Source: Candidatus Omnitrophota bacterium (lineage in GTDB: Bacteria; Omnitrophota; Gorgyraeia; 1-14-0-20-64-10). From it: a DNA stretch of 64,000 nucleotides. Both the position numbers and the translations under genes were made by a program. The notes under the pieces were generated by a model. It made no database searches. It saw only the letters and a list, made by a program, of their open reading frames with translations, and was not told where the DNA came from. The stretch's first letter is position 1. Every line of letters begins with the position of its first letter. Below are positions 5,603 to 62,528 of the stretch, piece by piece. The stretch is taken from NCBI GenBank assembly GCA_016177405.1, contig JACOVG010000033.1:41486-105485 (forward strand), read 5' to 3'.

Positions 5603-5631
5603 TTGACAATTCCGCGGGGATGTGCCATAGT
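5603..5631 (+). promoter_or_regulatory. Sigma-70-type promoter TTGACA-N17-CATAGT (GCCATAGT class) for the 5665 gene
   Basis: TTGACA at 5603-5608, a 17-bp spacer, and CATAGT at 5626-5631 preceded by G. An RBS AAGGAGGA lies 8 nt before the ATG at 5665. Confidence 0.55.
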
Positions 5632-32820: not shown

Positions 32821-32853
32821 ACTTACCGTTACTATTAAAATTTTCTTGACCCC

Positions 32854-32891
32854 TTGCTTTATTCCCTTCCATAGGCCATGCTTAAAAGTGA
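32854..32891 (+). promoter_or_regulatory. Promoter TTGCTT-N17-GGC-CATGCT (GCCATAsT class, copy 1) within an AT-rich island
   Basis: TTGCTT at 32854-32859 and CATGCT at 32877-32882, then TTAaaaGTGA. Region 32821-32947 is far more AT-rich than the flanks. It sits upstream of the excisionase-family gene. Confidence 0.5.
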
Positions 32892-32947
32892 TGAACAAGA
32901 ATGAAATACAAATAAGAAAACTGATAAAAACTGAAGATTGGTAAAGC

Positions 32948-33160
32948 ATGAGCCCAGAGATATTGACCATCAATCAAGTGGCCGACCTTCTTCACCTTCA
33001 TGAGATGACGGTCTACCGACTTGCCAAGGAGGGTAAGCTCCCAGGTTTCAAGGTGGGCGGGCGATGGCGCTTTCAGCGCGACGCCCTGGAAACCTGGATG
33101 GTGGACCGGGCGCAGGTGGCCCGCCTGGAGGGGGAAGTTAAAAGGAAGAAGGACGCTTAA
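32948..33160 (+). CDS. Excisionase-family (MerR-like) HTH DNA-binding protein
   Basis: 70 aa with the TIGR01764-type pattern LTINQVADLLHLHEMTVYRLAKEGKLPGFKVGGRWRF. Confidence 0.65.
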   Translation: MSPEILTINQVADLLHLHEMTVYRLAKEGKLPGFKVGGRWRFQRDALETWMVDRAQVARLEGEVKRKKDA

Positions 33161-33180
33161 GGCCGACAGGAGAAGAAACG

Positions 33181-33579
33181 ATGCCTGGCAAGAACATTCT
33201 GCTGGTGGACGACGAACCGGATCTGGTGCAGTTGGTCAGCTTGCGCCTGACCTCCGCCGGCTACGAAGTGGCGACAGCCATGGATGGACAGCAGGCGCTG
33301 GATCAGGTCAAGAAGGCCAAGCCCGACCTCATCATCTTGGATCTGATGCTGCCCAAGCTGGATGGCTACAAGGTCTGCCGCCTGCTCAAGTTCGATGAGC
33401 GGTACAAGGCGATCCCCGTCCTCATCTTCACGGCCCGGGCCCAGGCCCAGGACATCCAGCTCGCCATGGAGTGCGGCGCCGACGCCTATATGACCAAGCC
33501 CTTTGACGCGGCGGGCTTGCTTGCCAAGGTGAGCGAGCTCATGAACGAGGAGCGCGCCCCGCGAGGGGAAGCCTCTTAA
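33181..33579 (+). CDS. Single-domain response regulator (CheY-like receiver)
   Basis: LLVDDEP, phospho-acceptor Asp in IILDLMLP, and KPF near the C-terminus. Confidence 0.85.
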   Translation: MPGKNILLVDDEPDLVQLVSLRLTSAGYEVATAMDGQQALDQVKKAKPDLIILDLMLPKLDGYKVCRLLKFDERYKAIPVLIFTARAQAQDIQLAMECGADAYMTKPFDAAGLLAKVSELMNEERAPRGEAS

Positions 33580-33590
33580 AGGAAGAGCCC

Positions 33591-35234
33591 ATGACGGCAG
33601 CCCGCAGGCGAGAACTTCTTTCGCAGTGGATCGATAAGCTGGAAGGGCGCCTGAATCTGGATCCCCTGATCCAGGAGGCCTGCGGGGCCCTTCTTCGCCT
33701 AAGCGGCGCCGACCGCTGCTCCATCATGGTGCTGGACTCCTCCACCGAGGAGCTGTCCGTCCGATGGGCGGAAGGGATCCGGGTCAAGCCCTTTGGCAAG
33801 GTCAAGTTCAAGCTGGGGGAAGGAATGTGCGGCTGGGTCGCCCAAGCGCAGAAGCCCCTGTACAGCTTTGACGTCACCAAGGAAAACCGGTTTCTTCCCT
33901 CGGCCGCTTCCCGCCCGCGTCCGCTGAAGCCGGTCCGGGCCTTCTGCTGTCTGCCCTTGACCTCGGAGGGCCGCGCCATCGGCGTGGTGAATCTCTCCAC
34001 CTTCAAACCGAAGAGCCGGTTCAGCTCCTACGTCAAGCAGAGGCTGACCCAGGAGTTTTTGAGGAGGCTGGCCAAGGTCATCGCGCAGGCGGCCCTCCTG
34101 CGGGAAACCGAGGCGGCCTCGGAACGCTTCAGAAGGCTTCTTAAGAGCACCTCCGAGACGGTGGCCCAGGTCAGCCACGAGGTCCGCACCCCCTTGACCC
34201 TGATTACCGAAGGCGCGCAGCAGCTCTTGGACGGCATTCAAGGGCCGCTGGATCCCCGGCAAAAGGAGAGCCTCGAAAGGATCAAGGCGCAGACCGGGCG
34301 GATGCTTCGGCTGGTCAACGAGCTGTTGGACCTTTCCCGGATAGAGGCGGGCCGGCTCTCCCTTTACCGCAAACCCCTGGGGATGGGCGAATTGGTTCAA
34401 GAGGCGATTCACCGCTACGAACCGCTGATCGCTCCCCGCAAGCTCACCCTCCAGCTGGATTCGGTCCCGCCGGTCTATGGGGATCGCTCCCGCTTGACCC
34501 AGGTGGTGGAGAACCTCATCACCAATGCCGTGAAATTCACCTCCCCCAGCGGGGCCTTGGGGATCTCCTTGAAGGCCAAGGATCGTTGGGCCGAGCTGGG
34601 GGTGAGCGACACCGGGGCCGGAATGCCCAAGAGGGAGCAGGGGCGCCTTTTCGAGAAGTTCTTTCAAGGGAAGATGCCGGCCGGGTCGGTGGTGAAGGGA
34701 ACGGGACTGGGCTTGACGATCGTCAAGGAGATCGTTCAGCTTCATGCCGGGACGATCCGCGTCCGGTCTCGAGCCGGCGAAGGGACAACCTTCACGGTGA
34801 GCCTTCCACTCTACAGCCCGGCCTTCGCCCTGACCGAGGAGTTTGGCGCGATGCGCCGGCAGTCGGCCCGCGAGGGGACGGCCCTGTGCTGCCAGCTGTT
34901 TACGGCCCATTCCCGGACCCCGGTTTCCTGGCGGGAGGCGGCGGCTCTTTTCTCAAGGCACGTCTCCCGGGAGGACCGGGTTTTGGACCATCCCGAGGGA
35001 GGCCTGGTCATCCTTTCCGTTTCCGATCCCGCCGGGTTTGAGGCGATGCGCAAGCGCCTCGAGGGGGTGTTGAGCGCTCATCCGGAGATGATTCCCCCTT
35101 CCGGGATCGGCTGGGGATGGGCCTTGGTTCCGCAGGAGGCCGCCGACCTCGCCGAAGCCCTGCGCCTGGCCCGCGAGCGCGGCCAGGCGCGTTCGGAGAA
35201 TTTGGTCAAGAGCATCCGGGCCCTGGGAGATTAA
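33591..35234 (+). CDS. GAF-domain sensor histidine kinase with uncharacterised C-terminal extension
   Basis: N-terminal GAF domain. H-box SHEVRTPLT. HATPase G-boxes (DTGAGM, GTGLGLTIV). About 130 aa follow with no recognised domain. Confidence 0.8.
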   Translation: MTAARRRELLSQWIDKLEGRLNLDPLIQEACGALLRLSGADRCSIMVLDSSTEELSVRWAEGIRVKPFGKVKFKLGEGMCGWVAQAQKPLYSFDVTKENRFLPSAASRPRPLKPVRAFCCLPLTSEGRAIGVVNLSTFKPKSRFSSYVKQRLTQEFLRRLAKVIAQAALLRETEAASERFRRLLKSTSETVAQVSHEVRTPLTLITEGAQQLLDGIQGPLDPRQKESLERIKAQTGRMLRLVNELLDLSRIEAGRLSLYRKPLGMGELVQEAIHRYEPLIAPRKLTLQLDSVPPVYGDRSRLTQVVENLITNAVKFTSPSGALGISLKAKDRWAELGVSDTGAGMPKREQGRLFEKFFQGKMPAGSVVKGTGLGLTIVKEIVQLHAGTIRVRSRAGEGTTFTVSLPLYSPAFALTEEFGAMRRQSAREGTALCCQLFTAHSRTPVSWREAAALFSRHVSREDRVLDHPEGGLVILSVSDPAGFEAMRKRLEGVLSAHPEMIPPSGIGWGWALVPQEAADLAEALRLARERGQARSENLVKSIRALGD

Positions 35235-36845
35235 GTGGGAGCCATCAGGTCGTCCGAAGAGAAGCTGGTCGAGGAGGGGCTGATCACGGCCGAGCAGCTG
35301 AATCAGGCCCGCGCCGAGGCGGCGCGAAAGGGCCAATCGGTCCGGCAGGCCCTGGTGAGCTTGGGGGCGATCGATCCCAAGGCCCTGGCCCACTGGTTGA
35401 GCCGCGAGCTGAACCTTCCCCAGGTGGAGCTTAAGACCTATCTCGTGGATACCCAGGTGGTGGATCTGATTCCGGAGGCCTTGGCCAGGAAGCACCGGGT
35501 GATCCCCCTGTTCAAGGTGGGCTCCGCGCTGACCGTCGCGACCGCCGATCCGCTCAACCTCGCGGCCCTGGACGATCTGCGGTTGAAGAGCGGCTTGAAC
35601 GTGGAGCCGGTGGTCGCCACCGACGAGGAGATCGGCCAGGCCCTGGAGGAATATTACGGAGCCAAGGGCCGGTGGGACGAAATGGTCTCCCACCTGACCC
35701 AGGAGCGCCTGGGGATGGCGACGGGCGCCGAGCCGGAGCTCGCGAAGCTCAAAGGGCTCGTGGAGGAGCCGCCGATCGTGCGCCTGGTGAATCTCCTCCT
35801 GGCCGACGCGATCCACTGCCGCGCCTCCGACATCCACCTGGAGCCGGAGAGGGAGCTCTTGAAGGTCCGCTTCAGGGTGGACGGTCTCTTGAGGGAGTCG
35901 AGCGCCCTCCCCAAGCACCTGGAATCTGCCGTGATCTCCCGCATCAAGATCCTGGCCAGCCTCGACATTGCCGAGCGCCGCAAGCCGCAGGACGGCCGTT
36001 TCCGAGTTTCGATGGAGGGCCATGAGGTGGACCTGCGCGTCTCCGTGATGCCGGCGATCGACGGAGAAACGGTGGTTCTGCGCCTTCTGGACGCCTCCGG
36101 GCTTCAGTTGGACTTGAATCAGCTGGGCATGGAGCCCGAGCTTCTGGCCCGGTATCAGACTCTTCTCAAGCGCCCCTGGGGGATCCTCCTGGTCACGGGG
36201 CCCACAGGGTCGGGTAAGACCACCACCCTCTACGCCTCCCTGGCCACCCTCAATGCCGGCCAGCAGAACATCGTGACGATCGAGGATCCGGTCGAGTACC
36301 GGCTCAAGGGGATCCGGCAGATTCCGATCAACCCGGCGGTGGGCCTCACCTTTGCCTCGGGTTTGCGCTCCATCCTGCGCCAGGACCCGGATGTGATCCT
36401 GGTGGGGGAGATCCGCGACCGGGAGACGGCCGAGACCGCCGTCCAGGCGGCCCTCACCGGACACCTCGTTCTTTCCACCCTGCACACGAACGACGCCCCC
36501 ACCGCGATCACCCGCTTGATCGACATGGGGATGGAGCCGTTTCTGGTCGCTTCCAGCGTGATCGGCGTGGCGGCCCAGCGGCTGGTTCGGACGGTCTGCC
36601 CCGAGTGCAAGGCCCCCCGGAAGGGCTGCCGAAAATGCGGGAACACCGGCTACAAGGGAAGGATCGGAGTCTTTGAGCTGATGGTTATGAACGATGAGCT
36701 GGGCCGGCTGACCGTGGCCAAGGCCCCCACCGACCAGCTGCGCGCCTGCGCCTGCCGGAGCGGGATGCGCCTCCTGCGGGAGGATGGGATGTTGAGGGCC
36801 TCCTCCGGCCTCACCACCCCCGAAGAGGTCTTGAGGGTCACCTAA
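35235..36845 (+). CDS. Type IV filament assembly ATPase (GspE/PilB family)
   Basis: N-terminal GSPII_E N-domain. Walker A GPTGSGKTTT. Asp and His boxes. Tetracysteine motif CPECKAPRKGCRKCGNTGYKGR. Confidence 0.9.
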   Translation: MGAIRSSEEKLVEEGLITAEQLNQARAEAARKGQSVRQALVSLGAIDPKALAHWLSRELNLPQVELKTYLVDTQVVDLIPEALARKHRVIPLFKVGSALTVATADPLNLAALDDLRLKSGLNVEPVVATDEEIGQALEEYYGAKGRWDEMVSHLTQERLGMATGAEPELAKLKGLVEEPPIVRLVNLLLADAIHCRASDIHLEPERELLKVRFRVDGLLRESSALPKHLESAVISRIKILASLDIAERRKPQDGRFRVSMEGHEVDLRVSVMPAIDGETVVLRLLDASGLQLDLNQLGMEPELLARYQTLLKRPWGILLVTGPTGSGKTTTLYASLATLNAGQQNIVTIEDPVEYRLKGIRQIPINPAVGLTFASGLRSILRQDPDVILVGEIRDRETAETAVQAALTGHLVLSTLHTNDAPTAITRLIDMGMEPFLVASSVIGVAAQRLVRTVCPECKAPRKGCRKCGNTGYKGRIGVFELMVMNDELGRLTVAKAPTDQLRACACRSGMRLLREDGMLRASSGLTTPEEVLRVT

Positions 36846-36862
36846 GGGAGAGCAACAAGAGC

Positions 36863-38092
36863 ATGCCGACCTTCACCTATCAAGCCCGCGACGAATCGGG
36901 GCGGCTGGTCAAGGGAGCCCTGGAGGCGGACTCCCAGGCGGTTTTGGCCGAGCGGCTTCGGAAGATGGGCTATCTCGTCACCCGGATCGAAGAGGCGGCG
37001 CGGGGGATAGGGGGTTGGGCCGAGCTGCGCCTGGGGCGGGCCGTTTCCGGCGAGGATCTGCTCCTCACCTGTTTGCAGTTATCGGCCCTGGCCGGAGCCG
37101 GAGTCCCGCTCACCTCGAGCCTCAAGGCGGTTTCCTCCTCGCGCTCCAAGGAGAACGCCCTGCGGCAGGCCCTGGAGGGGGTGACCCATGAGGTTGAATC
37201 GGGATCCCGATTCTCGCAGGCCCTGGCCTGCCGCCGCGAAATCTTCCCGGAGCTGATGGTGAGCCTGGTGGAGGTGGGAGAGGCCACCGGAAAACTGGAC
37301 CTTGTCCTCTCGCGCTTCGCCCGTTTCCTCGAGAAGGATCTGGCCTTGAGGCGGGAGATCCAGGGGGCGCTGACGTATCCCCTGCTGCTTCTGGCCGCTT
37401 CCAGTCTCCTCATCCTCTTTGTGGTCTCCTTTGTGGTGCCGCAGTTTGCCCTGGTTTTTTTGAAGGCCGGCATCCCCCTGCCGGCCCCCACCCGGTTTCT
37501 GCAGTGGGCCGCCCACCTCATCCAAAGCTACTGGTGGGCCCTGGGTTTTCTGGCGGTCTTGGGGACAGCCGCCGCGGCCTTCGCGTACCGCAAGGCGCCC
37601 ATCCGTCTTAGGGTGGACCGGGCGCTGCTCACGCTTCCGGCGGCGGGGCCGCTTCTGTTGGCGTCGGCGGTCGCCCGCTTCTGCCGGACCTTGGCCACCC
37701 TGGCGGCCAGCGGTGTGGCCATCTTAACAGCCCTTCGGGTGGCCCGGCGCGTGGTGGGCAATCGGGCCCTGGTCCAAGAGGTTGAGCGGGTGGGCCAGGC
37801 GGTCGAACGGGGAGAGAGGATCGCCGCCGCCTTGAGCGTCGGCCGGGTCTTCTCGGCCGACGCGATCCAGATGATCCGCGTGGGGGAGGAGTCGGGAAGG
37901 CTTGATGAGATGCTGGAAAAGGTGGCCGACTTCTATGAACTTAAGGTAAGCTATACCCTAAAGCAAATGACGACTCTTCTGGAACCGGCCCTGCTGGTGG
38001 TCATGGGAGGGGTGACGGCTTTCATCATGGCTTCGCTCCTGCTTCCAATGTTCGACATGGTCAAGGTCCTTCAGCATGGAGGGTTGAGATGA
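36863..38092 (+). CDS. Type IV filament platform protein (GspF/PilC family)
   Basis: 409 aa with two T2SSF repeats and 3 TM segments. Confidence 0.9.
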   Translation: MPTFTYQARDESGRLVKGALEADSQAVLAERLRKMGYLVTRIEEAARGIGGWAELRLGRAVSGEDLLLTCLQLSALAGAGVPLTSSLKAVSSSRSKENALRQALEGVTHEVESGSRFSQALACRREIFPELMVSLVEVGEATGKLDLVLSRFARFLEKDLALRREIQGALTYPLLLLAASSLLILFVVSFVVPQFALVFLKAGIPLPAPTRFLQWAAHLIQSYWWALGFLAVLGTAAAAFAYRKAPIRLRVDRALLTLPAAGPLLLASAVARFCRTLATLAASGVAILTALRVARRVVGNRALVQEVERVGQAVERGERIAAALSVGRVFSADAIQMIRVGEESGRLDEMLEKVADFYELKVSYTLKQMTTLLEPALLVVMGGVTAFIMASLLLPMFDMVKVLQHGGLR

Positions 38093-38553
38093 AGCGGTCA
38101 AGGGGGTTCACGCTCATCGAGCTGATCATCGTGATCGCGGTGATCGCGATCTTGATCGGAATCGCCCTGCCGCGCCTTCGGGGAATGATCGATGAAGGCA
38201 ACACGGCCAAGGCCGGGGCGGAACTGCGGGCCCTCCAGGCGGCGGTGGAATCGTACTACATCCACAACTCCAAAACCTATCCGGCCGACGGCTCCGTCAC
38301 CTGGCAAACCGCCCTGACCGCCTCCACCACCAAACCCAAACTGATCGGCTCGGCCCTCACAGACCCCTTTTCGACCTCCAGCGCCCAGTACTCGTACGAC
38401 AAGTCGTCCAACGGCCTCTACTACGTGATCTGGTCGGTGGGGCCGGACAACACCGCCGACATCACCGCGATCGGCACCGATGGGACCATCTCCGGCGGCC
38501 CCGATGACGATATCTATGTCTCCAACGGCACCTCCGGCACCGGCGGTTTCTAA
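38089..38553 (+). CDS. Major pseudopilin/pilin with prepilin-type N-terminal cleavage/methylation domain
   Basis: MKRSRGFTLIELIIVIAVIAILIGIALP, with Gly-Phe at -1/+1 and Glu at +5. Confidence 0.8.
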   Translation: MKRSRGFTLIELIIVIAVIAILIGIALPRLRGMIDEGNTAKAGAELRALQAAVESYYIHNSKTYPADGSVTWQTALTASTTKPKLIGSALTDPFSTSSAQYSYDKSSNGLYYVIWSVGPDNTADITAIGTDGTISGGPDDDIYVSNGTSGTGGF

Positions 38554-39511
38554 AAGAACCCCGCGGTTCTGGCTCGGAATCCTTTTGGCCTTCTGCACCG
38601 GGGTGGGGCTGTCCCTCTTCGCCTTTTTTGTCCGCGGCGGGGCTGAATCCTGGGCCGTTTTCGCTCTGGGGGTGGCCTCCTCCTCTTTTCTCATCGCCTA
38701 CCTTCTGGTGGATTTCCGCAAGACGGCCGAGGTGAAGAAGCAGGTGGTTCAGCGGACCCTGGAGCTCCAGGAGGCAAACCGGCGGCTGAAGGAGCTCTCC
38801 AGGCTCAAGGACGAATTCATCGCCTCCGTCTCCCACGAGCTGCGCACCCCCTTGACCGTCATCCAAGAAGGAGTGGTTCAGGTTTTGGAGGGAATTTGCG
38901 GGCCCGCCAGCCCCGCCCAACGGCAGTCTCTCTCGATCGCCGTGAGGAACATCGAGCGCTTAAGGCGCCTGATCGAGGATCTCCTGGACATCTCCAAGAT
39001 TGAAACCGGCAGGATGGTCCTGAATCTGGAGACCTTTGATCTGCGGGAGGTTGTTCGGGAGGCGGGCCGGAGCTTCCTTCCGAGGATTCAGGGCAAGGGG
39101 CTTGAGCTGAAGATCCATCTTCCTGAAGGCAAGGTGGCTCTCTACGCGGATCGGGACAGGCTCGCCCAGGTTTTCTCCAACCTGCTGGACAACGCCCTGA
39201 AGTTCACGCGGAAGGGATTCATCGAGATCTGTGTTTTGGAGGAGAGTCGCCGCCAGATTGCCTGCAGGGTCTCGGACACCGGCTTGGGCCTTGCCCCGGA
39301 GTTTCTTTCAAAGCTCTTCCATAAATTTCAGCAGGCCCCCGGCGAGGCCGCCAACGGCGTGAAGGGAACCGGTCTGGGGCTGGCCATCTCCAAGGGAATC
39401 GTGGAGCTCCACGACGGCAGGATTTGGGCCGAGAGCCAACCGGGTCAGGGAACCCGCTTCACCTTCACCCTGCCGGTCAAAACCTTCCCCTCGCAGGCCC
39501 ATGCGGCCTAA
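38516..39511 (+). CDS. Membrane sensor histidine kinase embedded in the pilin gene run
   Basis: Two N-terminal TM segments. H-box SHELRTPLT. HATPase motifs (DNALKFT, DTGLGL, GTGLGLAISK). The start is uncertain: the ATG at 38516 overlaps the pilin gene by 38 nt, and alternative TTG/GTG starts lie near 38590. Confidence 0.7.
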   Translation: MSPTAPPAPAVSKRTPRFWLGILLAFCTGVGLSLFAFFVRGGAESWAVFALGVASSSFLIAYLLVDFRKTAEVKKQVVQRTLELQEANRRLKELSRLKDEFIASVSHELRTPLTVIQEGVVQVLEGICGPASPAQRQSLSIAVRNIERLRRLIEDLLDISKIETGRMVLNLETFDLREVVREAGRSFLPRIQGKGLELKIHLPEGKVALYADRDRLAQVFSNLLDNALKFTRKGFIEICVLEESRRQIACRVSDTGLGLAPEFLSKLFHKFQQAPGEAANGVKGTGLGLAISKGIVELHDGRIWAESQPGQGTRFTFTLPVKTFPSQAHAA

Positions 39512-39884
39512 AGCCCTCCCGGGATTCACCCTGCTGGAGGTGATGATCGCCGTGGTCCTGCTGACCGGCGCCGTCGCGGCGTCCGCCCTTGTTTTCAGCC
39601 GGGCCATTTTTATGACCGCCGACACCGAAACCCTGACGCAGGCGTCGGCCCTCGCCCAGGAGAAGCTGGAGTCTTTGCGGGGAGGTTCTTTCGCCGCCAT
39701 CGCCAGCGAACCCAAGGCCGCCGTCCCGGGCTGGAGCGGTTTTTCGCGGGAGGTCGAGGTCAGCCAGCCTGCCGGAACCAACAGCGATTTCAAACAGATC
39801 GGGGTGACCGTTTACTGGGACACCGTGGATGGGGAGCTTTCGACGGATCTCACCACCTATGTGGCGAATGTGTCGAACAATTGA
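39501..39884 (+). CDS. Minor pseudopilin, GspI/PilV-like
   Basis: Prepilin motif GFTLLEVMIAVVLL. 127 aa. Confidence 0.6.
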   Translation: MRPKALPGFTLLEVMIAVVLLTGAVAASALVFSRAIFMTADTETLTQASALAQEKLESLRGGSFAAIASEPKAAVPGWSGFSREVEVSQPAGTNSDFKQIGVTVYWDTVDGELSTDLTTYVANVSNN

Positions 39885-39885
39885 C

Positions 39886-40455
39886 GTGCCGAAAGCACGT
39901 CATCGCGAGTCCCGCCAACGAACTTTGGCGGGACGTGGCGATCTCGGACTGACCCTGATTGAACTTCTCATCGCCCTGCTTCTGGCGGGAGTTCTCATGA
40001 CGGCGGCAGCCATGTCGTTGAATCCCATCCTGCTGGCCTGGTCCAGCCAAATGGACCGGATAGAGCTCAACCGCCAGCTTCAGCATGGCCTGGAACGGGC
40101 CGTCCGGGATCTGCGAGGCGCGACAAATCTGGCCAACGACACCAACGACGCCATCCGTTACACCTTAAGGGAAAGCGGCGTGAGCAACTCCTACATCCTT
40201 TATCTTTACCACGCCGACGACACCTGGCCGCCCGCCTTCAACCAGACGGCCTACCAACTGCGTAAGGCCAGCCTGACCGGAGGGATCAACGGCACCTTCA
40301 CCTACGGCGGCGGGGACCTCCTGATGCGGGATGTTCAGCCGCCGGCCGCCTCGGACCTGTCGGTGAGCGGTTCGTTGGCGACGTTGGATCTCACCTTGGT
40401 TCGCAAGACGGACGAAACCTTCCGGCTGGTGGAGAAGGTCAAGAGGCGGAACTAA
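39886..40455 (+). CDS. Minor pseudopilin, GspJ/PilW-like
   Basis: Prepilin-like GLTLIELLIALLLAG. The start is uncertain: GTG at 39886, or TTG at 39925 giving the short leader MAGRGDLG. Confidence 0.55.
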   Translation: MPKARHRESRQRTLAGRGDLGLTLIELLIALLLAGVLMTAAAMSLNPILLAWSSQMDRIELNRQLQHGLERAVRDLRGATNLANDTNDAIRYTLRESGVSNSYILYLYHADDTWPPAFNQTAYQLRKASLTGGINGTFTYGGGDLLMRDVQPPAASDLSVSGSLATLDLTLVRKTDETFRLVEKVKRRN

Positions 40456-40456
40456 G

Positions 40457-41281
40457 ATGCGGGGCTCTGTGATGATCATGGCGCTGGCGCTCACGATTCT
40501 CCTGGTGGGCCTGGTGGGCGGCTATCTCTTTACCGTGGGAGTCTTGATCACGAACAGCGGCTGGGAGGAAACCGACGCCAAGACCTTGTGGCTGGCGGAG
40601 GCCGGTTTGCAAAAAGGGATCTGGAACCTGAAAACCCCCGCCGGAAGCGGCGGGCAAGGAGAGAACTGGACGACGGCAGGCACGACAGAAAACCTCGGTG
40701 CCGGGAGTTACACAATGGTTGTCACAAGATATGACTTTGCGCTGGGCACAAACGGAGGAACTGCCTCCGCCTCCTCACAATCAGCACAAGGACAGCGCGC
40801 TTCAAAAGCGATTGATGGGGATGATGAGAGTCGATGGGAATCGGATAACGTTCCAAGCTCGGCCGCGCCGGAACATATTGTCATCAGTTTTCCCTACCCG
40901 CTCACTTTGAACAAGGTTCGTTTTGTAGCGCACTCTTCGAATCAGCGGCCGGTGGATTACACTTGGGGAGTCTCGACGGACGGCTCGGCTTACGCAGTTG
41001 TCGTCACCGTAACAGGAAATGCCGCCACGGACCGCACCGACACGTTCGGTGCGCAGTCAAATGTCAACCATTTGAAACTCATAGTTACGGCGATCGGGGG
41101 CGGCCAAAAAGGAGTCGGTATTTCCAAGCTCGAGGCGATTGGGAGTAAAATCACCTCAATCGGCACCTTGACCGCCACCGGGCAGACGTACACCCGAACC
41201 ATTTCGCAAACGGTGGCGGCGGACGACGGCTCGCCGCAGAATCAAGTGGCCTATTACGAACCGGACTGGGCGGAGGAATGA
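40457..41281 (+). CDS. GspK/PilX-like tip pseudopilin carrying a discoidin (F5/8 type C)-like domain
   Basis: N-terminal TM MRGSVMIMALALTILLVGLVGGYL lacks Glu+5, as in GspK. Residues ~95-235 (ASKAIDGDDESRWESD ... VRFVAHSS ... LKLIVTAIGG) resemble the discoidin repeats of the 17673 gene. Confidence 0.55.
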   Translation: MRGSVMIMALALTILLVGLVGGYLFTVGVLITNSGWEETDAKTLWLAEAGLQKGIWNLKTPAGSGGQGENWTTAGTTENLGAGSYTMVVTRYDFALGTNGGTASASSQSAQGQRASKAIDGDDESRWESDNVPSSAAPEHIVISFPYPLTLNKVRFVAHSSNQRPVDYTWGVSTDGSAYAVVVTVTGNAATDRTDTFGAQSNVNHLKLIVTAIGGGQKGVGISKLEAIGSKITSIGTLTATGQTYTRTISQTVAADDGSPQNQVAYYEPDWAEE

Positions 41282-42864
41282 AAACCAAGCGAATCCTGGC
41301 GATCGAGCTGGGCGGCACGAGCTTCAAGCTGGCGGCGGCCGAAGTGACCGACGGCAAACCGACCCTCACCCGGGTCCGCCGCCTTCCCCTGGCAGCCCCA
41401 ACCGACGAGGCTTCGCGCCGGAAGACCCTCGAGGAGCTCCTTTCCGGGATCGCGCGGGACGCGAAAACCAACGTTGTCGCTCTCGTGGACGATCCCTTCG
41501 CCTTCGTGGGGCCTCTCCTGGTTCCGCCCATGCCCTCCGGCGAGCTGGCCGGAGCGGTCCATTTTGAGCTTCAGCGCGGCCTCCCCATCCCGCCGGAGGA
41601 AGCGGTCGTGGATTATGAAATCTCCGGAGGGGTGGAGAGCCAGGGGGTCAAGAAGCTCAAGCTTCTTGTCGGCGCCCTCCCCCAGCAGACGGTCAACAGC
41701 CAGCTTGCCTTCTTGGCGCGGGCCGGCCTAAAGCCCAGCCGGCTTATTCCCAGGGCGCAGGCGACGGCCGCCTGGTCCAAAGAGGGGGCGGATCCTTCCG
41801 CCGCCAGCCGCGGCATCCTTCGCGTCGGAGGGACCTCTTCGGAGTTTCTCGTGACAAGGGGCGGCCAGATCCTTTTTGTCAGGAAGATCCCGGTCTCCGG
41901 GGGAGATTTCACGCGAGGGATGACGGCCGTTCTGATGACGGCCGCGGGCCAGGTGGGTTTGACCGAAGCCGAGGCCGAGACGGTCAAGCGGACGGTCGGC
42001 ATACCCTCACCCGAATCCAGCAATCCGGCGACCCAGGGAATTCCGGCTTCCCAGATTCTGGCCATGCTGCGGGGCAGTCTCGATCGCCTGGCCGTGGAGG
42101 TGGAGCGCTCGATCGCCTTCTATGGAGAGTCTCAAGGCGGCGGATCGAGCTTGGGAGAGCTTATCCTCGCCGGAGGCGGGGCGCACCTGAAAGGGTTGGA
42201 CCAGTGGCTGGCGAAGAGACTTGGGATTCCGGTGACCGCGCCCGACCCTCTGGCCGGCAGGGCCGTCGCCGCCGGGGCTGTTGAGGAAAATGTGGCAACC
42301 GCGCCCTTGAGCCTGGCGGCGGTGCTGGGGGCTGTGGAGCTTTCCGCGGCGGGCGCGGGGCTTAATCTCTTGCCCCGCCAGATCAGGGAGGCCGCCCAGA
42401 CTCAAGCCAGGCGTTCGGTCCTGGCGGGATCGATCGGCGCGGCGGCGGCCGTCCTGCTTGTGGTGAAGGCTGGGATGGGGATTTACCAGGGGGCGCTTGA
42501 GAAAGAGCTGGCCGCCCTCCGGGTCGAACAGTCCGCGGTGATGTCCCAGCACGCCGCGGCCCAGACGACCTTAAGCGCCTACGAGCTTCTTCGAACCCAG
42601 CCCCCCCTGGAGGAGATCTTCAAGGAGTTGGGCCATGCCGTTCCGGCCCACGCGTACCTGACCCATTTGACCTGGCAGGAGGGTAAGTGGGCCCTTCAGG
42701 GCAAGGTTCGTGAGGTCACCCGAACGGCCGACGCGGTGCTCAACGATTTCCTGCGGGCCCTCTCCGAGGGACCTTTTACCGAGGTGCGGTTGATCGGGAG
42801 CCGGCAGGTGGAGGGGAGCATTCCCAGGGAGTCCGAGTTTGAAGTGAGCTGTCTCTTAAAGTGA
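41278..42864 (+). CDS. PilM-PilN fusion (GspL-like inner-membrane assembly protein)
   Basis: N-terminal actin-like PilM region (ILAIELGGTSFKLA ... GGGAHLKGL). A TM segment and coiled-coil PilN-like region follow (LNLLPRQIREAAQ...LAGSIGAAAAVLLVV). Confidence 0.65.
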   Translation: MKTKRILAIELGGTSFKLAAAEVTDGKPTLTRVRRLPLAAPTDEASRRKTLEELLSGIARDAKTNVVALVDDPFAFVGPLLVPPMPSGELAGAVHFELQRGLPIPPEEAVVDYEISGGVESQGVKKLKLLVGALPQQTVNSQLAFLARAGLKPSRLIPRAQATAAWSKEGADPSAASRGILRVGGTSSEFLVTRGGQILFVRKIPVSGGDFTRGMTAVLMTAAGQVGLTEAEAETVKRTVGIPSPESSNPATQGIPASQILAMLRGSLDRLAVEVERSIAFYGESQGGGSSLGELILAGGGAHLKGLDQWLAKRLGIPVTAPDPLAGRAVAAGAVEENVATAPLSLAAVLGAVELSAAGAGLNLLPRQIREAAQTQARRSVLAGSIGAAAAVLLVVKAGMGIYQGALEKELAALRVEQSAVMSQHAAAQTTLSAYELLRTQPPLEEIFKELGHAVPAHAYLTHLTWQEGKWALQGKVREVTRTADAVLNDFLRALSEGPFTEVRLIGSRQVEGSIPRESEFEVSCLLK

Positions 42865-43442
42865 AGATGACCCCGCCCCTTCTACGCGCTCTGAAGAAGG
42901 TCCAAGGGATGGCCGGGCCGCTTCTTGAGGCGGTCAGGAAAAAACCCAAATGGCTTGGGCCCCTGGCGGCTCTCGGGCTGATCGTTATCCTCTGGTCCCT
43001 CTACGCCGTCCCCTTGGGCCGGATCCGAAAGCTTCAAGCCGGCCTCCTGCCGTTGAAGGAGCAGGTCGCGCGGGCTCAAGAGGTGATCCAAAGGGCGCGC
43101 CAGGTGAATCTGGCCGCTTTGCCGGCGGCCGACGCCTTGCCCCAGGTGCTGGAGGAGCTCAACGCCTTGGCGCGCCAGCACGAGGTTCAATTGGTCAAGA
43201 CAGCCCCCCAGCCGACACGCCCGGCGGAATCCCGGGGGCTGGTGATCCTGCCGCTTGAGCTTCAGGTGGAGGCGGAGTACCGGAATCTCGGGGAATTCTT
43301 GGGGGCTCTGCGAAGGGCGCCGGGCCTGGGCGTGCCGCTGACGCGCCGGATTGCCCTCGGCAGAGAAGAGAGGCTGCTACCGCGGCTTACGGCGACGCTG
43401 ACGATCGACCTCATTTTAAGCGAGGCGCCCGGTGGCTCCTAA
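42861..43442 (+). CDS. PilO/GspM-like assembly protein
   Basis: 193 aa. Single TM (LGPLAALGLIVILWSLYAV), then a coiled-coil and a periplasmic domain. Confidence 0.55.
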   Translation: MKMTPPLLRALKKVQGMAGPLLEAVRKKPKWLGPLAALGLIVILWSLYAVPLGRIRKLQAGLLPLKEQVARAQEVIQRARQVNLAALPAADALPQVLEELNALARQHEVQLVKTAPQPTRPAESRGLVILPLELQVEAEYRNLGEFLGALRRAPGLGVPLTRRIALGREERLLPRLTATLTIDLILSEAPGGS

Positions 43443-43869
43443 AAAAGAGAAGGTGGTCCTGGCCGTCTTGGCGGCGCTGGCCGCGGTGGTCTGGGTGAGG
43501 GGTCTCACCGCCCGTCCGGCAAGGCCCCAACGATCCGCGGCGGCCCCCTCGCTCTCCGGCGCGGCCGTCAGGGGCGCGGGCCAGGGGGCCCAGAAGATGA
43601 CCTCCCGCTTCACCGAATGGGCCGACAGCCCCTTCCTGGTGGAGCGCCGCGGCCGCCCCGATACGAAAGCGGTGCAAGTTCCTGATTCGGGGGGAAGGGC
43701 TCTTGCCGTAAGCGGAATCCTTTGGGATCCCAAGGGTTCTTCGGCCATCGTCAACGGACTGCTGGTCGGCGTGGGGGACGAGGTGGGCGGCTGGAAGGTT
43801 CTGGAGATCCAGAGGGATAAGGTGGTCCTGACCGACGGGGCCAACCTCGAAACCCTCACCGTGGAATAG
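43432..43869 (+). CDS. PilP/GspC-like protein
   Basis: N-terminal TM. The C-terminal beta-domain (AVSGILWDPKGSSAIVNGLLVGVGDEVGGWKVLEIQRDKVVL) is like the PilP C-terminus or the GspC HR domain. GTG start. Confidence 0.5.
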   Translation: MAPKKEKVVLAVLAALAAVVWVRGLTARPARPQRSAAAPSLSGAAVRGAGQGAQKMTSRFTEWADSPFLVERRGRPDTKAVQVPDSGGRALAVSGILWDPKGSSAIVNGLLVGVGDEVGGWKVLEIQRDKVVLTDGANLETLTVE

Positions 43870-45136: not shown

Positions 45137-45209
45137 CCGCCTCCGGAGCATCCTTTTTCCTTTCCAACAGGAAAGGGGGTGTGCTATCTATAAGGAGGGC
45201 ACCACACCC

Positions 45210-46916
45210 ATGCGCAGACCTCTTGTTCTCCAAACGAGCCTATTTCTGCTGTGCGGGCTCCTCGCGGGAGTTGCCTGGGCGGCCCAGCGGGACATCGAGG
45301 TGGGCTCCGAGGAGGAGCGGCTAAGAAGGCCTCGAATCCTGGAAGTGCCAGAGCGGGCCGTCATCCCCGTCGAAATCCCTCCGGAGGAGCCACTCCCCGC
45401 CACCGCGGCAGACCTGCCACCTGTCCTGGTAGCCCAGGTTGTGATCGACGGAGCGACCGTCCTGCCGGAAAAGGAGGCCCGCCGGCTGACCGCCCCTGTG
45501 GAAGGCCGGACCGTTTCCCTCAAAGAGCTCCAAGAAACCACCCGCACCATCACCCGTTGGTATCGAGGCAAGGGGTACGTCACCTCCCGCGCCTTGGTTC
45601 CTGCCCAGACGGTTCAGAAGGGGAGCGTTCGCCTGCGGGTGGTGGAAGGGAAGGTGGGCCTGGTGAAGATAGAGGGAAACCGCCATTTCTCCACCGAGCT
45701 GCTTCAACGGTACCTCCGGATCCATTCCGGGGAGGTCTTCAACCTCTTCCGGGTTGAGGAAGGACTGGTCCAGCTCAATGCCCATCCGGATCGCAAAGCC
45801 AAGCTGGTCCTTACCCCTGCCAAGGAGCCGGAGACCTCGGACCTCATCCTGCAGGTGACCGACCAAGGACCCTTCCACGCCAACTACGGCGTGGATACCC
45901 TGGGAACCAAAGAGACCGGTTTGATCCGGCAGAGCTTAGGTCTGGCCCACGGAAATCTGACCGGCCATGACGACCAGCTCTTTGTGCGTGGCATCGTGAC
46001 GGAGTTTGCCGGCCTCTGGGGTGGAGCCATGAGCTACCTCCGTCCTCTGACCCCGAGAGGAGCTGCCGCCAGCCTGGAGGTGAGCGGCGTCAAGTCTTCC
46101 GTGGGAGGGGACCTGAAGAATCTGATCGCCAAGGGGAATGCCCTCACCATCAGTCCCAGCCTGATCCTGCCGTGGGTGAAGCGAGCGGCCTTCGAGCTGG
46201 AGGCGACCGCCGGTTTTGACTTCAAAAGGGTTCGGACCTTCCGTGACGAAAGGAGCAACTCCAAGGACGACCTCCGGGTTTTTCGGGTGGGGACCAACCT
46301 CCTTTCGCAAGATGTCCGGGGCAGGAGTCTCATCGTTCAGGAACTCCGAGTAGGACTTCCCAACATCCTCGGCGGTTCCCATGGGGAAGAGGTAGCCGCC
46401 AGCCGGGCTAAGGCCGGTGGTTCCTTCATCCGATGGGTGGCGAATCTGGTGAGGATTCACCGGGGGCCTTGGGGTACCACCCTTGTCTTCCGGGGCTCTG
46501 GCCAACTGACGACCGACCGGCTGGTCCCGGCGGAACAGTTCCGACTGGGCGGTTTTGACACGGTGCGCGGCTACCCCGAGGGAGAATTCCTCGCCGACGC
46601 GGGCTACCAAGCCACGGTGGAGGTGCGCGCCCCGACGGAGAAGTTTCTTCCGGCTTGGGGGGGCCAAAGCTCCCCGTGGGGACGCCTGCGCCGCTCCCTG
46701 CTGGTGGTCGGTTTCTGGGATTTTGCCGAGGGGTTTGTGCGGGACCCAGCCGCCGGGGAGGATGCCGACATGCGCCTGGCCGGGGCCGGGTGTGGCCTGC
46801 GTCTGCGCCCCACCTCGGAATCGGTCCTGCAGGCCGATTTTGGCTGGGCCTTTGGCGACCGGGATGCCGAGAAGGACCGCCCCCGAATCCACCTGATCTG
46901 CCGGATTGGATTCTAA
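45210..46916 (+). CDS. Two-partner secretion outer-membrane transporter (TpsB; ShlB/FhaC/HecB family)
   Basis: Signal peptide MRRPLVLQTSLFLLCGLLAGVAWA. POTRA region (ITRWYRGKGYVTSRA...VVEGKVGLVKIEGNRHF). VRGY loop-6 motif (FDTVRGYPEGEF). C-terminal aromatic residue. Internal Met32 chosen as the start. Confidence 0.8.
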   Translation: MRRPLVLQTSLFLLCGLLAGVAWAAQRDIEVGSEEERLRRPRILEVPERAVIPVEIPPEEPLPATAADLPPVLVAQVVIDGATVLPEKEARRLTAPVEGRTVSLKELQETTRTITRWYRGKGYVTSRALVPAQTVQKGSVRLRVVEGKVGLVKIEGNRHFSTELLQRYLRIHSGEVFNLFRVEEGLVQLNAHPDRKAKLVLTPAKEPETSDLILQVTDQGPFHANYGVDTLGTKETGLIRQSLGLAHGNLTGHDDQLFVRGIVTEFAGLWGGAMSYLRPLTPRGAAASLEVSGVKSSVGGDLKNLIAKGNALTISPSLILPWVKRAAFELEATAGFDFKRVRTFRDERSNSKDDLRVFRVGTNLLSQDVRGRSLIVQELRVGLPNILGGSHGEEVAASRAKAGGSFIRWVANLVRIHRGPWGTTLVFRGSGQLTTDRLVPAEQFRLGGFDTVRGYPEGEFLADAGYQATVEVRAPTEKFLPAWGGQSSPWGRLRRSLLVVGFWDFAEGFVRDPAAGEDADMRLAGAGCGLRLRPTSESVLQADFGWAFGDRDAEKDRPRIHLICRIGF

Positions 46917-46946
46917 GAGCTAACTTTTTCGTCGTTCAATTTCTAC

Positions 46947-46984
46947 TTGCTTTTCCATGTTTCATCGGCCATAGTTTAAGGTGA
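46947..46984 (+). promoter_or_regulatory. Promoter TTGCTT-N17-GGC-CATAGT (GCCATAsT class, copy 2) for the TpsA gene
   Basis: TTGCTT at 46947-46952 and CATAGT at 46970-46975, then TTAagGTGA. Lower-GC intergenic region. Confidence 0.5.
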
Positions 46985-47013
46985 GTCGTTTCTAGTTCCA
47001 AGTCCCTTTAATA

Positions 47014-50000
47014 GTGCGTAACAGCTCCCCGAACGCGTGGCGCCGCCATCTTCTAGGCGCGGCGGCGCTGATCTTCCTGTGGGGCGCAGGGATCGATCCT
47101 CCCCCACTCCTCGCCCTGCCTTCCGGTACCGTCGTGGAGGACGGCTCCGTCGAAATGGAGCTGGCTTCCGACGCGAATCTTCACGTGCACGTCCTTTCCG
47201 AGAAGGCGATCCTGGGGCACTCAAGCTTTGACATTACCGCCCCCGAGACGGTCGAGATCCATCACCATCTGACAACTCCCTCCGCGGCCCTCCTCTCCCG
47301 CGTCTACGGCGGGGCCGCCTCCGAGATCGCCGGCACCCTGCTTTCCAATGGTCTATTCGCTCTGGTCAACCCGGCCGGCATCCACATCGCCGATTCGGCC
47401 ACGATCGACGCGGCCAAAGGCTTTATCGCCTCAACCCTCAACATCTCCAACGCCAACTTCCTGGCTGGAAACCTTGTTTTCGAATCCTCTCCAGGCCAAC
47501 CGTCGGGGGCCGTGGTCAACGAAGGCCGAATCCTCACCTACCCCGGAGAGCTGGTGGCCCTGCTGGGTGGAGCGGTGGAGAACAAGGGCTCGATTCTGGC
47601 GGAACTGGGCTCCATCGTTCTGGCTGCCGGCGAGAAGCTCACCCTTTCCTTCGACCGGCAGGGCTGGTTCGGCGTCACGGTGGAGGAGCCCCTTTCGGAG
47701 ATCGCCACCGGACTGGACGGCAAGCCGGTTGCCGCAGCGGTGGAGCAATCGGGCACCCTCTCCGCCGCAGGCGGCCATATCCTGGTCAAGGCAGAGGCGC
47801 TCCCTGGGCTCTTTGACAAGCTGGTCAGCCTTCCGGCCGGTTTGATCGAAGCCGCCAGTGTTGTCTACCGCAACGGCCAGGTGGAGCTGGTCGGCAAGGG
47901 GGGAACCCTCTCCCACTTTGGCGCGATCCGGGCCGACGGCACCGTGGAGGCTCCACGAGCTGGCGGCATCCTGGTTGAAGCGACCCGGATCCTCCAGGGA
48001 GGCACCATCAGCGCCAATGCAGGTGAGGGGGGTGCGGCCGGCAGCATCCAGTTGATCAGCGAGGAGACTACCAGTCTCTTGGCCGGCAGCCGAATAGAGG
48101 CCAGGGCCTCCGGGGCGGTTGGAGAGGGAGGGTCCATTCGGATAACTTCCACTTTGCCAAAGGTGAGCGGTTCCCTGTTCGTTGGGCCCGGCTCGGTCGT
48201 TGATGTGAGCGGCGGCTCCGAGGCGGGAGATGCCGGTTTTATTGAGTTAAGCGCACGTAGTGTGGAACTTTGGGGCGGCCGGCTGGCGGCGCGGGCGGCC
48301 GACGGCTCCTCGGGAGGGCGCCTCCTGATCGATCCCCTGGACCTCACCTTCGATACCTCCACCCAGGATGCTCCCACCAACGAGGCCAGCGGCACGCCGG
48401 ACATCGCCTTCGATGACCCGGACACCGTCACCTCCACCACAGTGCAGATCGCCGACATCACCGGCTTTGCCGAGGCCTTCTTCCAGGCCGTCCGGGACAT
48501 TATTGTGAACGCCGCCCTGACGATGGGCAACAACAACGATCTGCGTCTGGAGGCCGGCCGGGACATTAATCTCAACGCCAACGTTCGGGTCCAGGGGGGC
48601 AGCGGCCACATGACCCTGATCGCCGATGCCGACTTCTCTGGCGACGGGGGAGCCGCCTCAGACGGGGACGGGACGATCAACCAGGCGGCGGGGGTGACGA
48701 TCCAGTCGGGTGACGGGGACGTTGTCCTCCAGACGGCCGAAGACTTCACCGTCCGGACCATCGCGGGCGGCAACGGCGGGACCGTCTCGATTACCTCCAC
48801 CGATGGGAATATTCTGGATGATGGCGACGACTCCACCCGGATCACCACCGACGAGCTTACCCTCACCGCCAACGCCTCCGGCAAGGGAGCAGGCACCTCG
48901 GATGAGCTGGACACCAACCTCAATGAGCTGACGTTCGACGTCGGCTCCGGCGGGGCCAAGGTCCGGGATTCCGGCTCCTTCACCCTGAAGGCCCCCACCG
49001 TGGCCTCCGGCGGCTCCCTGGACCTCCGATCCGATAACGATCTGACGATTGATAACAATGCGGCCGTGACGGTAAGCGGGTCAGGTACCCTTACCTTGAT
49101 CGCCGATGCCGACGCCAGCGGGGCCGGCGGCCTCACCATGAACAGCGGCTCCTCCCTCGTAAGCGGCAGCGGCAAGATCACCCTGGACGCTGGCGACAAC
49201 GTGGATCTTCGGACCGTCACCTCAGACAGCGGCGACATCGAGGCTTCCTCCGATGATGATGTCAGGGTCCGCAATAATATGACGACCGCCGGCGCCGGCA
49301 AGATCACCCTCACCGCCGACAGCAATGGAAACGGCAGCGGCACCTTTATCCAGGATAGCGGGGTTACCGTCGCAACCGGCGGCGGCGACATCGCCATCAG
49401 CGGCGCCGACGACATGACCCTGCGCACGATCAACGCCGGCGCCGGCGATCTCACGATCACCGCCGTCGGCAGCAACATCAACGATGACAACAGCAACACC
49501 ACGAAGCTCACGGCCGACAAGCTCACCCTGACCGGCAACCGGATTGGGAACACGGGCAACAACCAGATCGACACGAGCGTCAACGAGATTGACGTCACCG
49601 CTGGCGGCGACCTCCTCTTGACCAATGACAAAACCCTGCTGGTCACCAACGCCACGGCCAACGGCAGTGGCAGCGACATCACGCTGGTCACTACAAGCGG
49701 TGATCTGCTGATCAATCTCGTTTCTGCGACAGGGGACCTGGTGACGCTCACGGCGGCGGGGGCCATCACCGAATCCGGGTCGGATGCCGGGTCGGACCTT
49801 CTGGCCAGTCAGGCAGCCCTTTCGGCCGCCAGCGGGATCGGGACCTCGGGCGACTCCCTGGAGACCACCCTGACCACCCTGGCGGCCCAGACCACCTCCT
49901 CCGGAGGGGTTTTCATTTCCAATACAGGAACCCTCTCCCTGGGAACGGTCGGTTCCTTGACCGGGGTGACGGCCGCCGGCGGCGGGATCAGAATCACGGC

Positions 50001-52692: not shown

Positions 52693-52734
52693 CCCCAGCC
52701 CAAAGTCCACTTTTACAAGATTTTTTTCCATCCC

Positions 52735-52770
52735 TTGTTTTTTCCGGTTCCGCAGGCCATACTTAGGGTG
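52735..52770 (+). promoter_or_regulatory. Promoter TTGTTT-N17-GGC-CATACT (GCCATAsT class, copy 3)
   Basis: TTGTTT at 52735-52740 and CATACT at 52758-52763, then TTAGGGTGA. A ~200-nt leader runs to the ATG at 52964. Confidence 0.5.
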
Positions 52771-52963
52771 AGGGGCAAGTTGGCAAGTGTGGTAAAGGTT
52801 CTTTAACAACACATCATAGCGGGGACCTGTCTCAAGGCACACCTGTCGTAAGGCAGGGTCGCAAAGCTAGAGGGTCCGCCAAAGTTCTCCGGCGGATAGC
52901 CAGTTGCCAGGTCAAGATTCCAGATTCAGGCCCTCGCGCTCTTAACCGCGGAGGGCCTATTTC

Positions 52964-53320
52964 ATGTCTAGGAATCTGTTGTGGAGTCTCGGGGTCTTGA
53001 GTTTGGCAGCGCTTTTCGGTTTCTTCCTCAATACCCTTGTTTCAAATACCTACGCAGAAACTTCTGTTTTCTCTTCTCTGGCAAGCCCGACCTTAGAGAC
53101 CAGGCAGCTTTCCTCTGGCGCTTCTGTCCCTGCGATGCCCGGCTTGGCTTCTCCGATTGCCTCCAGCACGCGGGGTTCTACCCGGGTGGTGGAACTGCCC
53201 AACCGGATTAGCCTGGATCGGCTTCGCCGGGAGAATTACCGCTATCCGGATCATGACTTGGCGAATCGGTTGGTGGAGGTGGCGACCGAGCGTCCGCCCC
53301 TCTTCGGATCGGATTTCTAA
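52964..53320 (+). CDS. Small secreted hypothetical protein (118 aa)
   Basis: Signal peptide MSRNLLWSLGVLSLAALFGFFLNTLVSNTYA. RBS GGAGGG lies within a hairpin (GGCCCTC...GAGGGCC). Confidence 0.45.
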   Translation: MSRNLLWSLGVLSLAALFGFFLNTLVSNTYAETSVFSSLASPTLETRQLSSGASVPAMPGLASPIASSTRGSTRVVELPNRISLDRLRRENYRYPDHDLANRLVEVATERPPLFGSDF

Positions 53321-62458: not shown

Positions 62459-62487
62459 TTGCCGGCAACCCGGAGCTGTGGCATACT
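62459..62487 (+). promoter_or_regulatory. Promoter TTGCCG-N17-(GG)CATACT (GCCATAsT class, copy 5)
   Basis: CATACT at 62482-62487, 14 nt upstream of hairpin copy B. TTGCCG is 17 bp further up. Confidence 0.4.
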
Positions 62488-62500
62488 TCTTGTGCAAAAA

Positions 62501-62528
62501 GGTGCCGGGATAAATCCTGGCACCTTTT
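62501..62528 (+). terminator. 24-bp palindromic hairpin (copy B) plus T-tract: gltB terminator and/or leader operator of the next gene
   Basis: GGTGCCGGGATAAATCCTGGCACC followed by TTTT. It is the reverse complement of copy A at 15286 with one mismatch. Confidence 0.6.

Follow-up and report, generated by a model that had tools for sequence, protein, structure and literature searches.

A candidate sigma-70-family promoter type, conserved in Omnitrophota, upstream of a pilus operon, a two-partner-secretion exoprotein gene and a c-di-GMP-I riboswitch

A promoter module present in three copies was found in a 64,000-nucleotide stretch of DNA from a Candidatus Omnitrophota bacterium (the whole stretch is referred to as the window; G+C approximately 63%). 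We give somewhat better than even odds (a probability of roughly 0.55) to the reading that the three sites repeat a single type of sigma-70-family promoter, which is conserved in Omnitrophota and drives co-regulated surface and attachment genes tied to c-di-GMP. In kind, the module is a variant of the sigma-70-family promoter. Omnitrophota are uncultured, often ultra-small bacteria that are thought to attach to hosts. To our knowledge, transcription signals have hardly been described for these or other uncultured PVC-group phyla.

The initial annotation had described five near-identical modules as one promoter class. All five strings were recovered on the forward strand, each comprising TTGnnn, an exact 17-nt spacer and a -10 hexamer of CATAGT, CATGCT or CATACT. 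All five are intergenic, and each is co-oriented with the next gene. The pattern TTG-N20-CATRST matched seven times in the window, against 0.77 ± 0.85 matches by dinucleotide shuffling (no shuffle reached seven). The remaining two matches (32945 and 38073, minus strand) were inside coding sequence. The longer pattern CTTGYTT-N14-GGCCATNNTT-N1-3-RGTGA matched exactly three times (32854, 46947 and 52735; 0.00 expected), and a sequence readable as CTTGYTT-N14-GGCCATrsTT-(1-3)-RGTGA is common to these three sites only. The true repeated object is a three-copy module of approximately 45 to 60 bp rather than a five-copy one. Coordinates of the module copies, the two other flagged sites and the neighbouring features are given in Table 1.

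Table 1. Positions in the window of the module copies, the remaining flagged sites and associated features.
Feature	Position	Strand	Basis or remark
First flagged site, TTGACA-17-(TGTGC)CATAGT	5603..5631	+	-18.1 bits (7-sequence matrix), -21.6 bits (10-sequence matrix)
A/T-rich upstream element (GTTACTATTAAAATTTTC)	32828..32845	+	approximately -60 to -43 of copy 1
Module copy 1, pilus-operon promoter	32850..32898	+	42.5 bits, foreign-promoter matrix; conserved in 8 genomes
Pilus operon behind copy 1 (type IV pilus-like)	32948..43869	+	Pfam/NCBIfam; syntenic in L019, L021, L023, L025-L028
TpsB, ShlB/POTRA type	45117-46916		directly before copy 2 and TpsA
Module copy 2, between TpsB and TpsA	46943..46990	+	21.7 bits, second in 128 kb searched
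TpsA-type two-partner-secretion exoprotein, 1892 aa	47014..52692	+	behind TpsB; N-terminal LVNPAGIHI
Module copy 3	52731..52778	+	19.6 bits, third by foreign-promoter matrix
c-di-GMP-I riboswitch aptamer	52826..52911	+	Rfam RF01051, 56.3 bits against a gathering score of 35, full-length model
Small secreted protein, 118 aa	52964..53320	+	N-terminal signal-like hydrophobic segment; no family match
Fifth flagged site, TTGCCG-17-(TGTGG)CATACT	62459..62487	+	-28.7 and -29.3 bits with the two matrices
gltB intrinsic terminator, 14-bp stem then UUUUACU	62497..62528	+	-23.3 kcal/mol, z = -6.55 against shuffles

Copy 1 comprises CCCC with the -35 hexamer TTGCTT (32854-32859), a 17-nt spacer, GGC with the -10 hexamer CATGCT (32877-32882) and then TAAAAGTGATGAA. 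Copy 2 has TTGCTT (46947-46952), a 17-nt spacer, GGC with CATAGT (46970-46975) and then TTAAGGTGAG; its match to the -35 block is weak (4.7 bits). Copy 3 has CCC with TTGTTT (52735-52740), a 17-nt spacer, GGC with CATACT (52758-52763) and then TAGGGTGAGG. The predicted transcription starts are at approximately 32889-32891, 46981-46984 and 52769-52772, respectively. The A/T-rich element upstream of copy 1 resembles an UP element in its sequence, and T-rich tracts are present at the matching position in copies 2 and 3. A block upstream of copy 1, GTTACTA..CTAAATTTT, is kept in an alignment of eight genomes.

Alignment of the three copies revealed no flanking homology, similarity ending at the module edges, and no repeat family was found over the sites. 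A repeat or mobile-element origin of the module was rejected on these two grounds. Viral contigs scanned with the CTTGYTT-N14-GGCCATNNTT-N1-3-RGTGA pattern gave no match. A search inside the module for a palindromic or direct-repeat operator gave nothing convincing and no clearly symmetric regulator site; the sole pattern, seen in the window copies, was a 7-nt repeat with a loose match (TTCCATA/GGCCATG).

Conservation was assessed at the syntenic pilus locus of seven other Omnitrophota (L019, L021, L023, L025, L026, L027 and L028), here called the foreign set. The module was present upstream of the HTH_17 gene, the first of the pilus operon, in seven of seven foreign loci, with a 17-nt spacer and the consensus CCcCTTGttTTTtcc-N7-TcaGCCATnCTTAAAA. 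The longer consensus from the eight-genome alignment is.TTTt...c.CCcCTTGttTTTtcc.......TcaGCCAT.cTTAAAa.tg.tgaa, and a looser consensus of the module for the phylum is CCCTTGNNTTT-N12-GCCATNNTTAA. TTG, the 17-nt spacer, A-11, T-7 and the flanking blocks were kept in all eight orthologous pilus promoters (the L019 spacer is 18 nt if its -10 is taken as TATATT). Among the same eight promoters, the leader and the central part of the spacer have diverged in sequence, and the conserved blocks are therefore under selection. The -10 hexamers seen in the module class (CATGCT, CATAGT, CATACT, CATATT, CACACT and TATATT) all fit nAnnnT. The HTH_17 protein has many relatives at 70-87% identity.

Class membership was tested by scanning the window on both strands with a weight matrix derived exclusively from the foreign set of seven promoters. 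The sites at 32854, 46947 and 52735 took the first three ranks in that order (scores in Table 1), with the next best match at 3.5 bits. Maxima from 200 shuffled windows averaged 3.7 ± 3.1 bits, the largest being 13.8. No further strong match was found in approximately 120 kb of related loci except L019 8321 (TTGATT-17-GGCTATACT; 14.5 bits with a 10-sequence matrix and 12.3 bits with the 7-sequence matrix), and the 6 kb to the left of the window (L030) contained no module. The Omnitrophota sequence covered came to approximately 190 kb in all.

The first and fifth flagged sites were excluded by the same matrices, and the grouping of five sites into one class was rejected on their scores. The csp, gltB, DUF1802 and 31711 promoters scored in the same range (-18 to -29 bits). 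GGC before the -10, attributed to all five sites, is present at 32854, 46947 and 52735, and is TGC at 5603 and TGG at 62459. The TTA-N2-3-GTGA element attributed to the first four sites fails at 5603, which reads CATAGTCCCCTTAGAATAAAA without GTGA; RGTGA holds at the other three. The architecture of site 5603 equals that of the L026 csp promoter, and from its sequence the site looks like an ordinary housekeeping-type promoter outside the module class. Site 62459 follows the gltB stop (62422) and precedes the terminator of that gene, a hairpin that the initial annotation had recognized. Since the terminator is just past the -10, a transcript from 62459 would meet it immediately; the site has a generic form and a productive promoter role is doubtful. 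The proposed promoter class linking the filament cluster, the exoprotein and several secreted proteins was retained for the pilus operon, TpsA and the 118-aa protein, on the foreign matrix, and lost the genes at 5603 and 62459.

Approximately 20 other promoters in these genomes follow TTGACr-N17/18-(TGTGn or TGn)-TAnnnT or GATACT. The csp promoter of the window has an 18-nt spacer and a TGTGn extended -10. On an E. coli-style promoter score (maximum 13), generic promoters reached 9-11.5 and most module copies 6.5-7.5, with the L019 copy at 10.0. The CATAsT -10, put forward as a mark of the class, is not class-specific. It was also found in the csp promoter of L026 (TTGACA-17-TGTGCCATACTTAAGG, i.e. 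(TGTGC)CATACT) and in an internal pilus-cluster promoter at L019 17198 (TTGACA-18-CAGCCATACTTTGAA, i.e. (CAGC)CATACT), and at both of these GCCATACT is paired with consensus TTGACA. The class is marked by the -35 block (CCCC-TTG-yTT-TTCC, never TTGACA) together with T-6 A-5 after the -10. TA at -6/-5 was present in most module-class promoters versus two of nine leadered generic promoters. Position -12 is C in nine of ten module copies, and position -15 is A or G.

Start codons were observed 6-8 nt past a good -10 at three positions in the window (31627, minus strand; 31711 and 57221, plus strand), the genes being those of an FA desaturase, a divergent neighbour and DUF1802. The same spacing was seen in relatives (L019 8106, L027 7475/7576 and L028 8653), and leaderless mRNAs seem, from these sequences, to be common in these Omnitrophota. 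In seven of the eight orthologous pilus promoters (window, L019, L021, L023, L025, L026 and L028) an ATG or GTG is found at the ninth nucleotide after the -10, where it coincides with the expected transcription start (window region 32889-32944). The ORF opened there is 4-25 codons long (MNKNEIQIRKLIKTEDW in the window) with sequence unconserved past the second codon; it is a possible leaderless mini-ORF with which the pilus-operon mRNA would begin.

The pilus operon starts with the HTH_17 gene (32948-33160, 70 aa), a receiver-only response regulator and a GAF histidine kinase. Its middle part encodes a PilB-like ATPase with an MshEN domain, PilC, a pilin, a histidine kinase and minor pilins, and it ends with an F5/8-type-C protein, PilM-PilN, PilO and a T2SSC-like protein. 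For TpsA, the TPS domain (PF05860) was present in 17 of 17 homologues of the N-terminus; the nearest TpsA relative (L029, 53% identity) has no module upstream. The segment carrying DinB, TpsB, TpsA, the riboswitch and the small protein (43925-53320) is placed between the pilus cluster and a class II ribonucleotide reductase gene. It is missing there in L023 and L026 and therefore looks like an inserted island.

Three further features were recorded in passing. A 550-aa ORF (11946-13598, minus strand) upstream of an AcrB gene has an N-terminal MarR-type HTH and two OEP/TolC repeats, and might reflect either an uncommon fusion or the joining of two separate genes in ORF calling. In a 1517-aa VWA / F5/8-type-C gene, repeated discoidin domains correspond to imperfect tandem repeats (18426-19271; period 519 nt, identity approximately 70%). 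In L019, a palindrome-rich element of approximately 100 nt (...CATGCAAAACCGTTCGTGCTGATCCTGAGC...GAAGGG...) is present in at least three intergenic regions (approximately 5040-5170, 8160-8290 and 15070-15200) and resembles a MITE or REP element.

The riboswitch sits in a leader of approximately 190 nt behind copy 3, which is approximately 60 nt upstream of it. As the riboswitch starts at 52826, its transcript must begin upstream of this position. Related promoters are GGCTATACTTAGG in L026, before a c-di-GMP-I riboswitch, and GGCTATACTTGAA in L019, before a similar leader. The L026 riboswitch (2397-2479, 40.5 bits) precedes a small protein beside the pilus cluster. No riboswitch was found behind copies 1 and 2, even at E <= 5. 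The MshEN domain of the PilB-like ATPase (35235-36845) is N-terminal and c-di-GMP-binding, and GGDEF-EAL genes are present within the pilus cluster of L021 (14359-15777) and L023 (10917-13010). From MshEN and the GGDEF-EAL genes in related clusters, the pilus system appears to be c-di-GMP-controlled at several levels. The pilus genes, the secreted adhesin and the c-di-GMP-controlled gene are probably switched on together, as judged from their shared promoter sequence. Elsewhere in L021, a c-di-AMP (ydaO) riboswitch (2677-2852, minus strand) was observed upstream of a PTS_EIIA / amino-acid permease pair.

The module has the attributes of a sigma-70-family promoter: TTG with 16-18-nt spacing, an nAnnnT -10, and an intergenic, co-oriented and conserved position. 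The 17-nt spacer and the bases A-11, T-7 and G-14 conform to the sigma-70 register. Position -12 varies between orthologues, the pilus promoters having CATGCT in most genomes and TATATT in L019, and the riboswitch promoters CATACT in the window and TATACT in L026 and L019. This interchange of C and T at -12, the pairing of GCCATACT with TTGACA and the sigma-70 register favour recognition by the primary sigma factor or by a paralogue close to it. The module would most likely be read by this primary sigma or by a closely related group-2 (RpoS-like) paralogue, and less likely by a sigma of a very different kind. A dedicated alternative sigma factor (RpoS-like group-2 or RpoH-like group-3) might instead read the module, with the pilus, TpsA and riboswitch genes as its regulon and with the -35 block and G-14 C-13 C-12 / T-6 A-5 as the specificity determinants; we regard this as rather unlikely. 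It would account for the persistence across phylum-level divergence of C-12 and of a non-consensus -35 (TTGyTT/TTGTAT, never TTGACA), which looks like selection for a variant rather than drift, and for the enrichment of TA at -6/-5 noted above. However, the replacement of C-12 by T gives near-consensus TATACT or TATATT, the identical -10 block accompanies TTGACA in the csp promoter of L026 and at L019 17198, and no sigma gene was found in the window or the fetched related loci. RpoS and RpoH are known from Proteobacteria, which also counts against such a factor here, and we know of no RpoS in PVC-group Omnitrophota. Resemblance to published consensus sequences bears on the same question. GCCATrCTTAA fits, at 10 of 11 positions, the E. 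coli sigma-S extended -10 KCTAYRCTTAA, which goes with a weak -35 (Weber et al. 2005, cited in PMC5650638). CCC-TTG and CCAT loosely resemble the sigma-32 consensus TTGAAA-N13/14-CCCCATNT (as quoted in PMC6687850), but CATnnT stands in sigma-70 register and is not CCCCATnT. A sigma-32 reading was rejected, as TTGyTT-N14-GGCCATnnT has no AAA in the -35, places its final T one base off and contains two Cs rather than four. Two other readings were also rejected. With sigma-28 (FliA), no TAAA was found at the -35, and GCCATAG lacks the CGA core. With sigma-54, no GG was found 10-11 nt upstream of TTGC in any copy on either strand. The sigma-28 consensus is TAAA-N15-GCCGATAA, and that of sigma-54 has GG at -24 and GC at -12 (TGGCAC-N5-TTGC).

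The similarity might also carry no regulatory meaning, the sites being weak housekeeping promoters made alike by lineage-wide features or by intragenomic copying, for example during assembly of the DinB-TpsB-TpsA-riboswitch island beside the pilus cluster. The window copies do share spacer bases (TTCC..AGGC) and GGC/GTGA that are absent from the foreign orthologues; by eye, spacer identity is 9-11 of 17 among the window copies versus 7 of 17 between copy 1 and its L021 orthologue. Given these shared bases and the inserted segment (missing in L023 and L026), some promoter copying within the genome is plausible. Recent copying could thus have produced part of the similarity without a shared regulator, although copying does not exclude co-regulation. 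In addition, the blocks are singly unexceptional in the window, and block-only scans give a background of 12-13 bits. Against this, the similarity stops at the module edges. The architecture is kept at the pilus operon in eight genomes and at riboswitch promoters, or before a similar leader, in three. The approximately 20 generic promoters of the same genomes clearly differ (TTGACr, TGn-extended -10). We therefore hold a purely fortuitous or copied resemblance to be quite improbable, and favour the conserved sigma-70-family promoter type.

Conservation of the -35 block extends well beyond the hexamer, which suggests dependence on a shared activator or sigma selectivity, and a common regulator may act on the module. 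The best solved relatives of the HTH_17 protein are the BldC-DNA complexes 6AMK and 6AMA (E = 0.02), and it scored 29.5 bits against NCBIfam HTH_BldC (cut-off 77). Streptomyces BldC is a small MerR/excisionase-like protein that binds 9-bp AATTxxxx(C) direct repeats (PMC5859096). The string AATT-N4-C was found at approximately -52 in five of the eight orthologous pilus promoters, by eye from the alignment. Binding of the BldC-like HTH protein to the module promoters is a conjecture by analogy.

In the proposed scheme, the promoter would have an upstream tract rich in A/T, followed by a T-rich -35 block flanked by Cs (CCCC-TTG-yTT-TTCC), a spacer of exactly 17 nt, a -10 of the extended type (G-14 C-13 C-12 A-11 T-10 r s T-7) and a discriminator that begins with T-6 A-5 and is rich in A/T. 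Transcription would start near the conserved (G)TGA, 7-9 nt past the -10 hexamer. The promoter would drive three units, namely the HTH-headed pilus-like operon, TpsA, and the c-di-GMP-I riboswitch leader with the small secreted protein. The primary sigma or an RpoS-like group-2 paralogue would read the module, with control added by a shared activator or by sigma selectivity, and the outcome would be co-regulation of surface and attachment genes tied to c-di-GMP signalling. A bolder version is less likely than not: Omnitrophota would have a dedicated attachment switch, in which either an RpoS-like sigma or an activator (the operon's own BldC-like HTH protein being one possibility) reads CCCC-TTG-yTT-TTCC / GCCATrCTTAA and couples pilus, TpsA and riboswitch-gated secreted proteins in a conserved regulon. 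The motif is conserved and scorable; it is a marker of the pilus operon throughout the phylum, and here it also precedes an adhesin and a c-di-GMP-gated gene. The motif offers a concrete route to predicting the attachment regulon from MAGs, and a testable link between c-di-GMP signalling and pilus/adhesin expression.

The module can be compared with four known systems. It is like BldC-controlled promoters in that a BldC-like gene is the first behind copy 1 and that the AATT-N4-C string recurs among its orthologues, but it shows no evident repeat array and the protein similarity to BldC is weak. With sigma-32 (RpoH) promoters, as quoted in PMC6687850, it shares a run of Cs preceding TTG and, in the -10 region, a core of C-C-A-T approximately 14 nt past the -35 hexamer. 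It differs from them in having CATnnT rather than CATnT, GG or AG in place of the first two Cs, and downstream genes for pilus, adhesin and secreted proteins rather than chaperones or proteases. With E. coli sigma-S promoters, in the form quoted in PMC5650638, it shares G/T-14, C-13, A-11, Y-10, R-9, C-8, T-7, TAA from -6 to -4 and a degenerate -35. In many module copies 10 of 11 positions agree, but at -12 the module has C and sigma-S promoters have T, and C-13 is also present in generic promoters of the lineage. From housekeeping sigma-70/sigma-A extended -10 promoters the module differs in the T-rich end of the -35, which is not ACA, in the conserved CCCC/TTCC flanks, in C at -12 and in A or G instead of T at -15. 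It has in common with these promoters TTG at the -35, the 17-nt spacer, invariant A-11 and T-7, G-14, the A/T-rich upstream tract and co-oriented placement upstream of genes.
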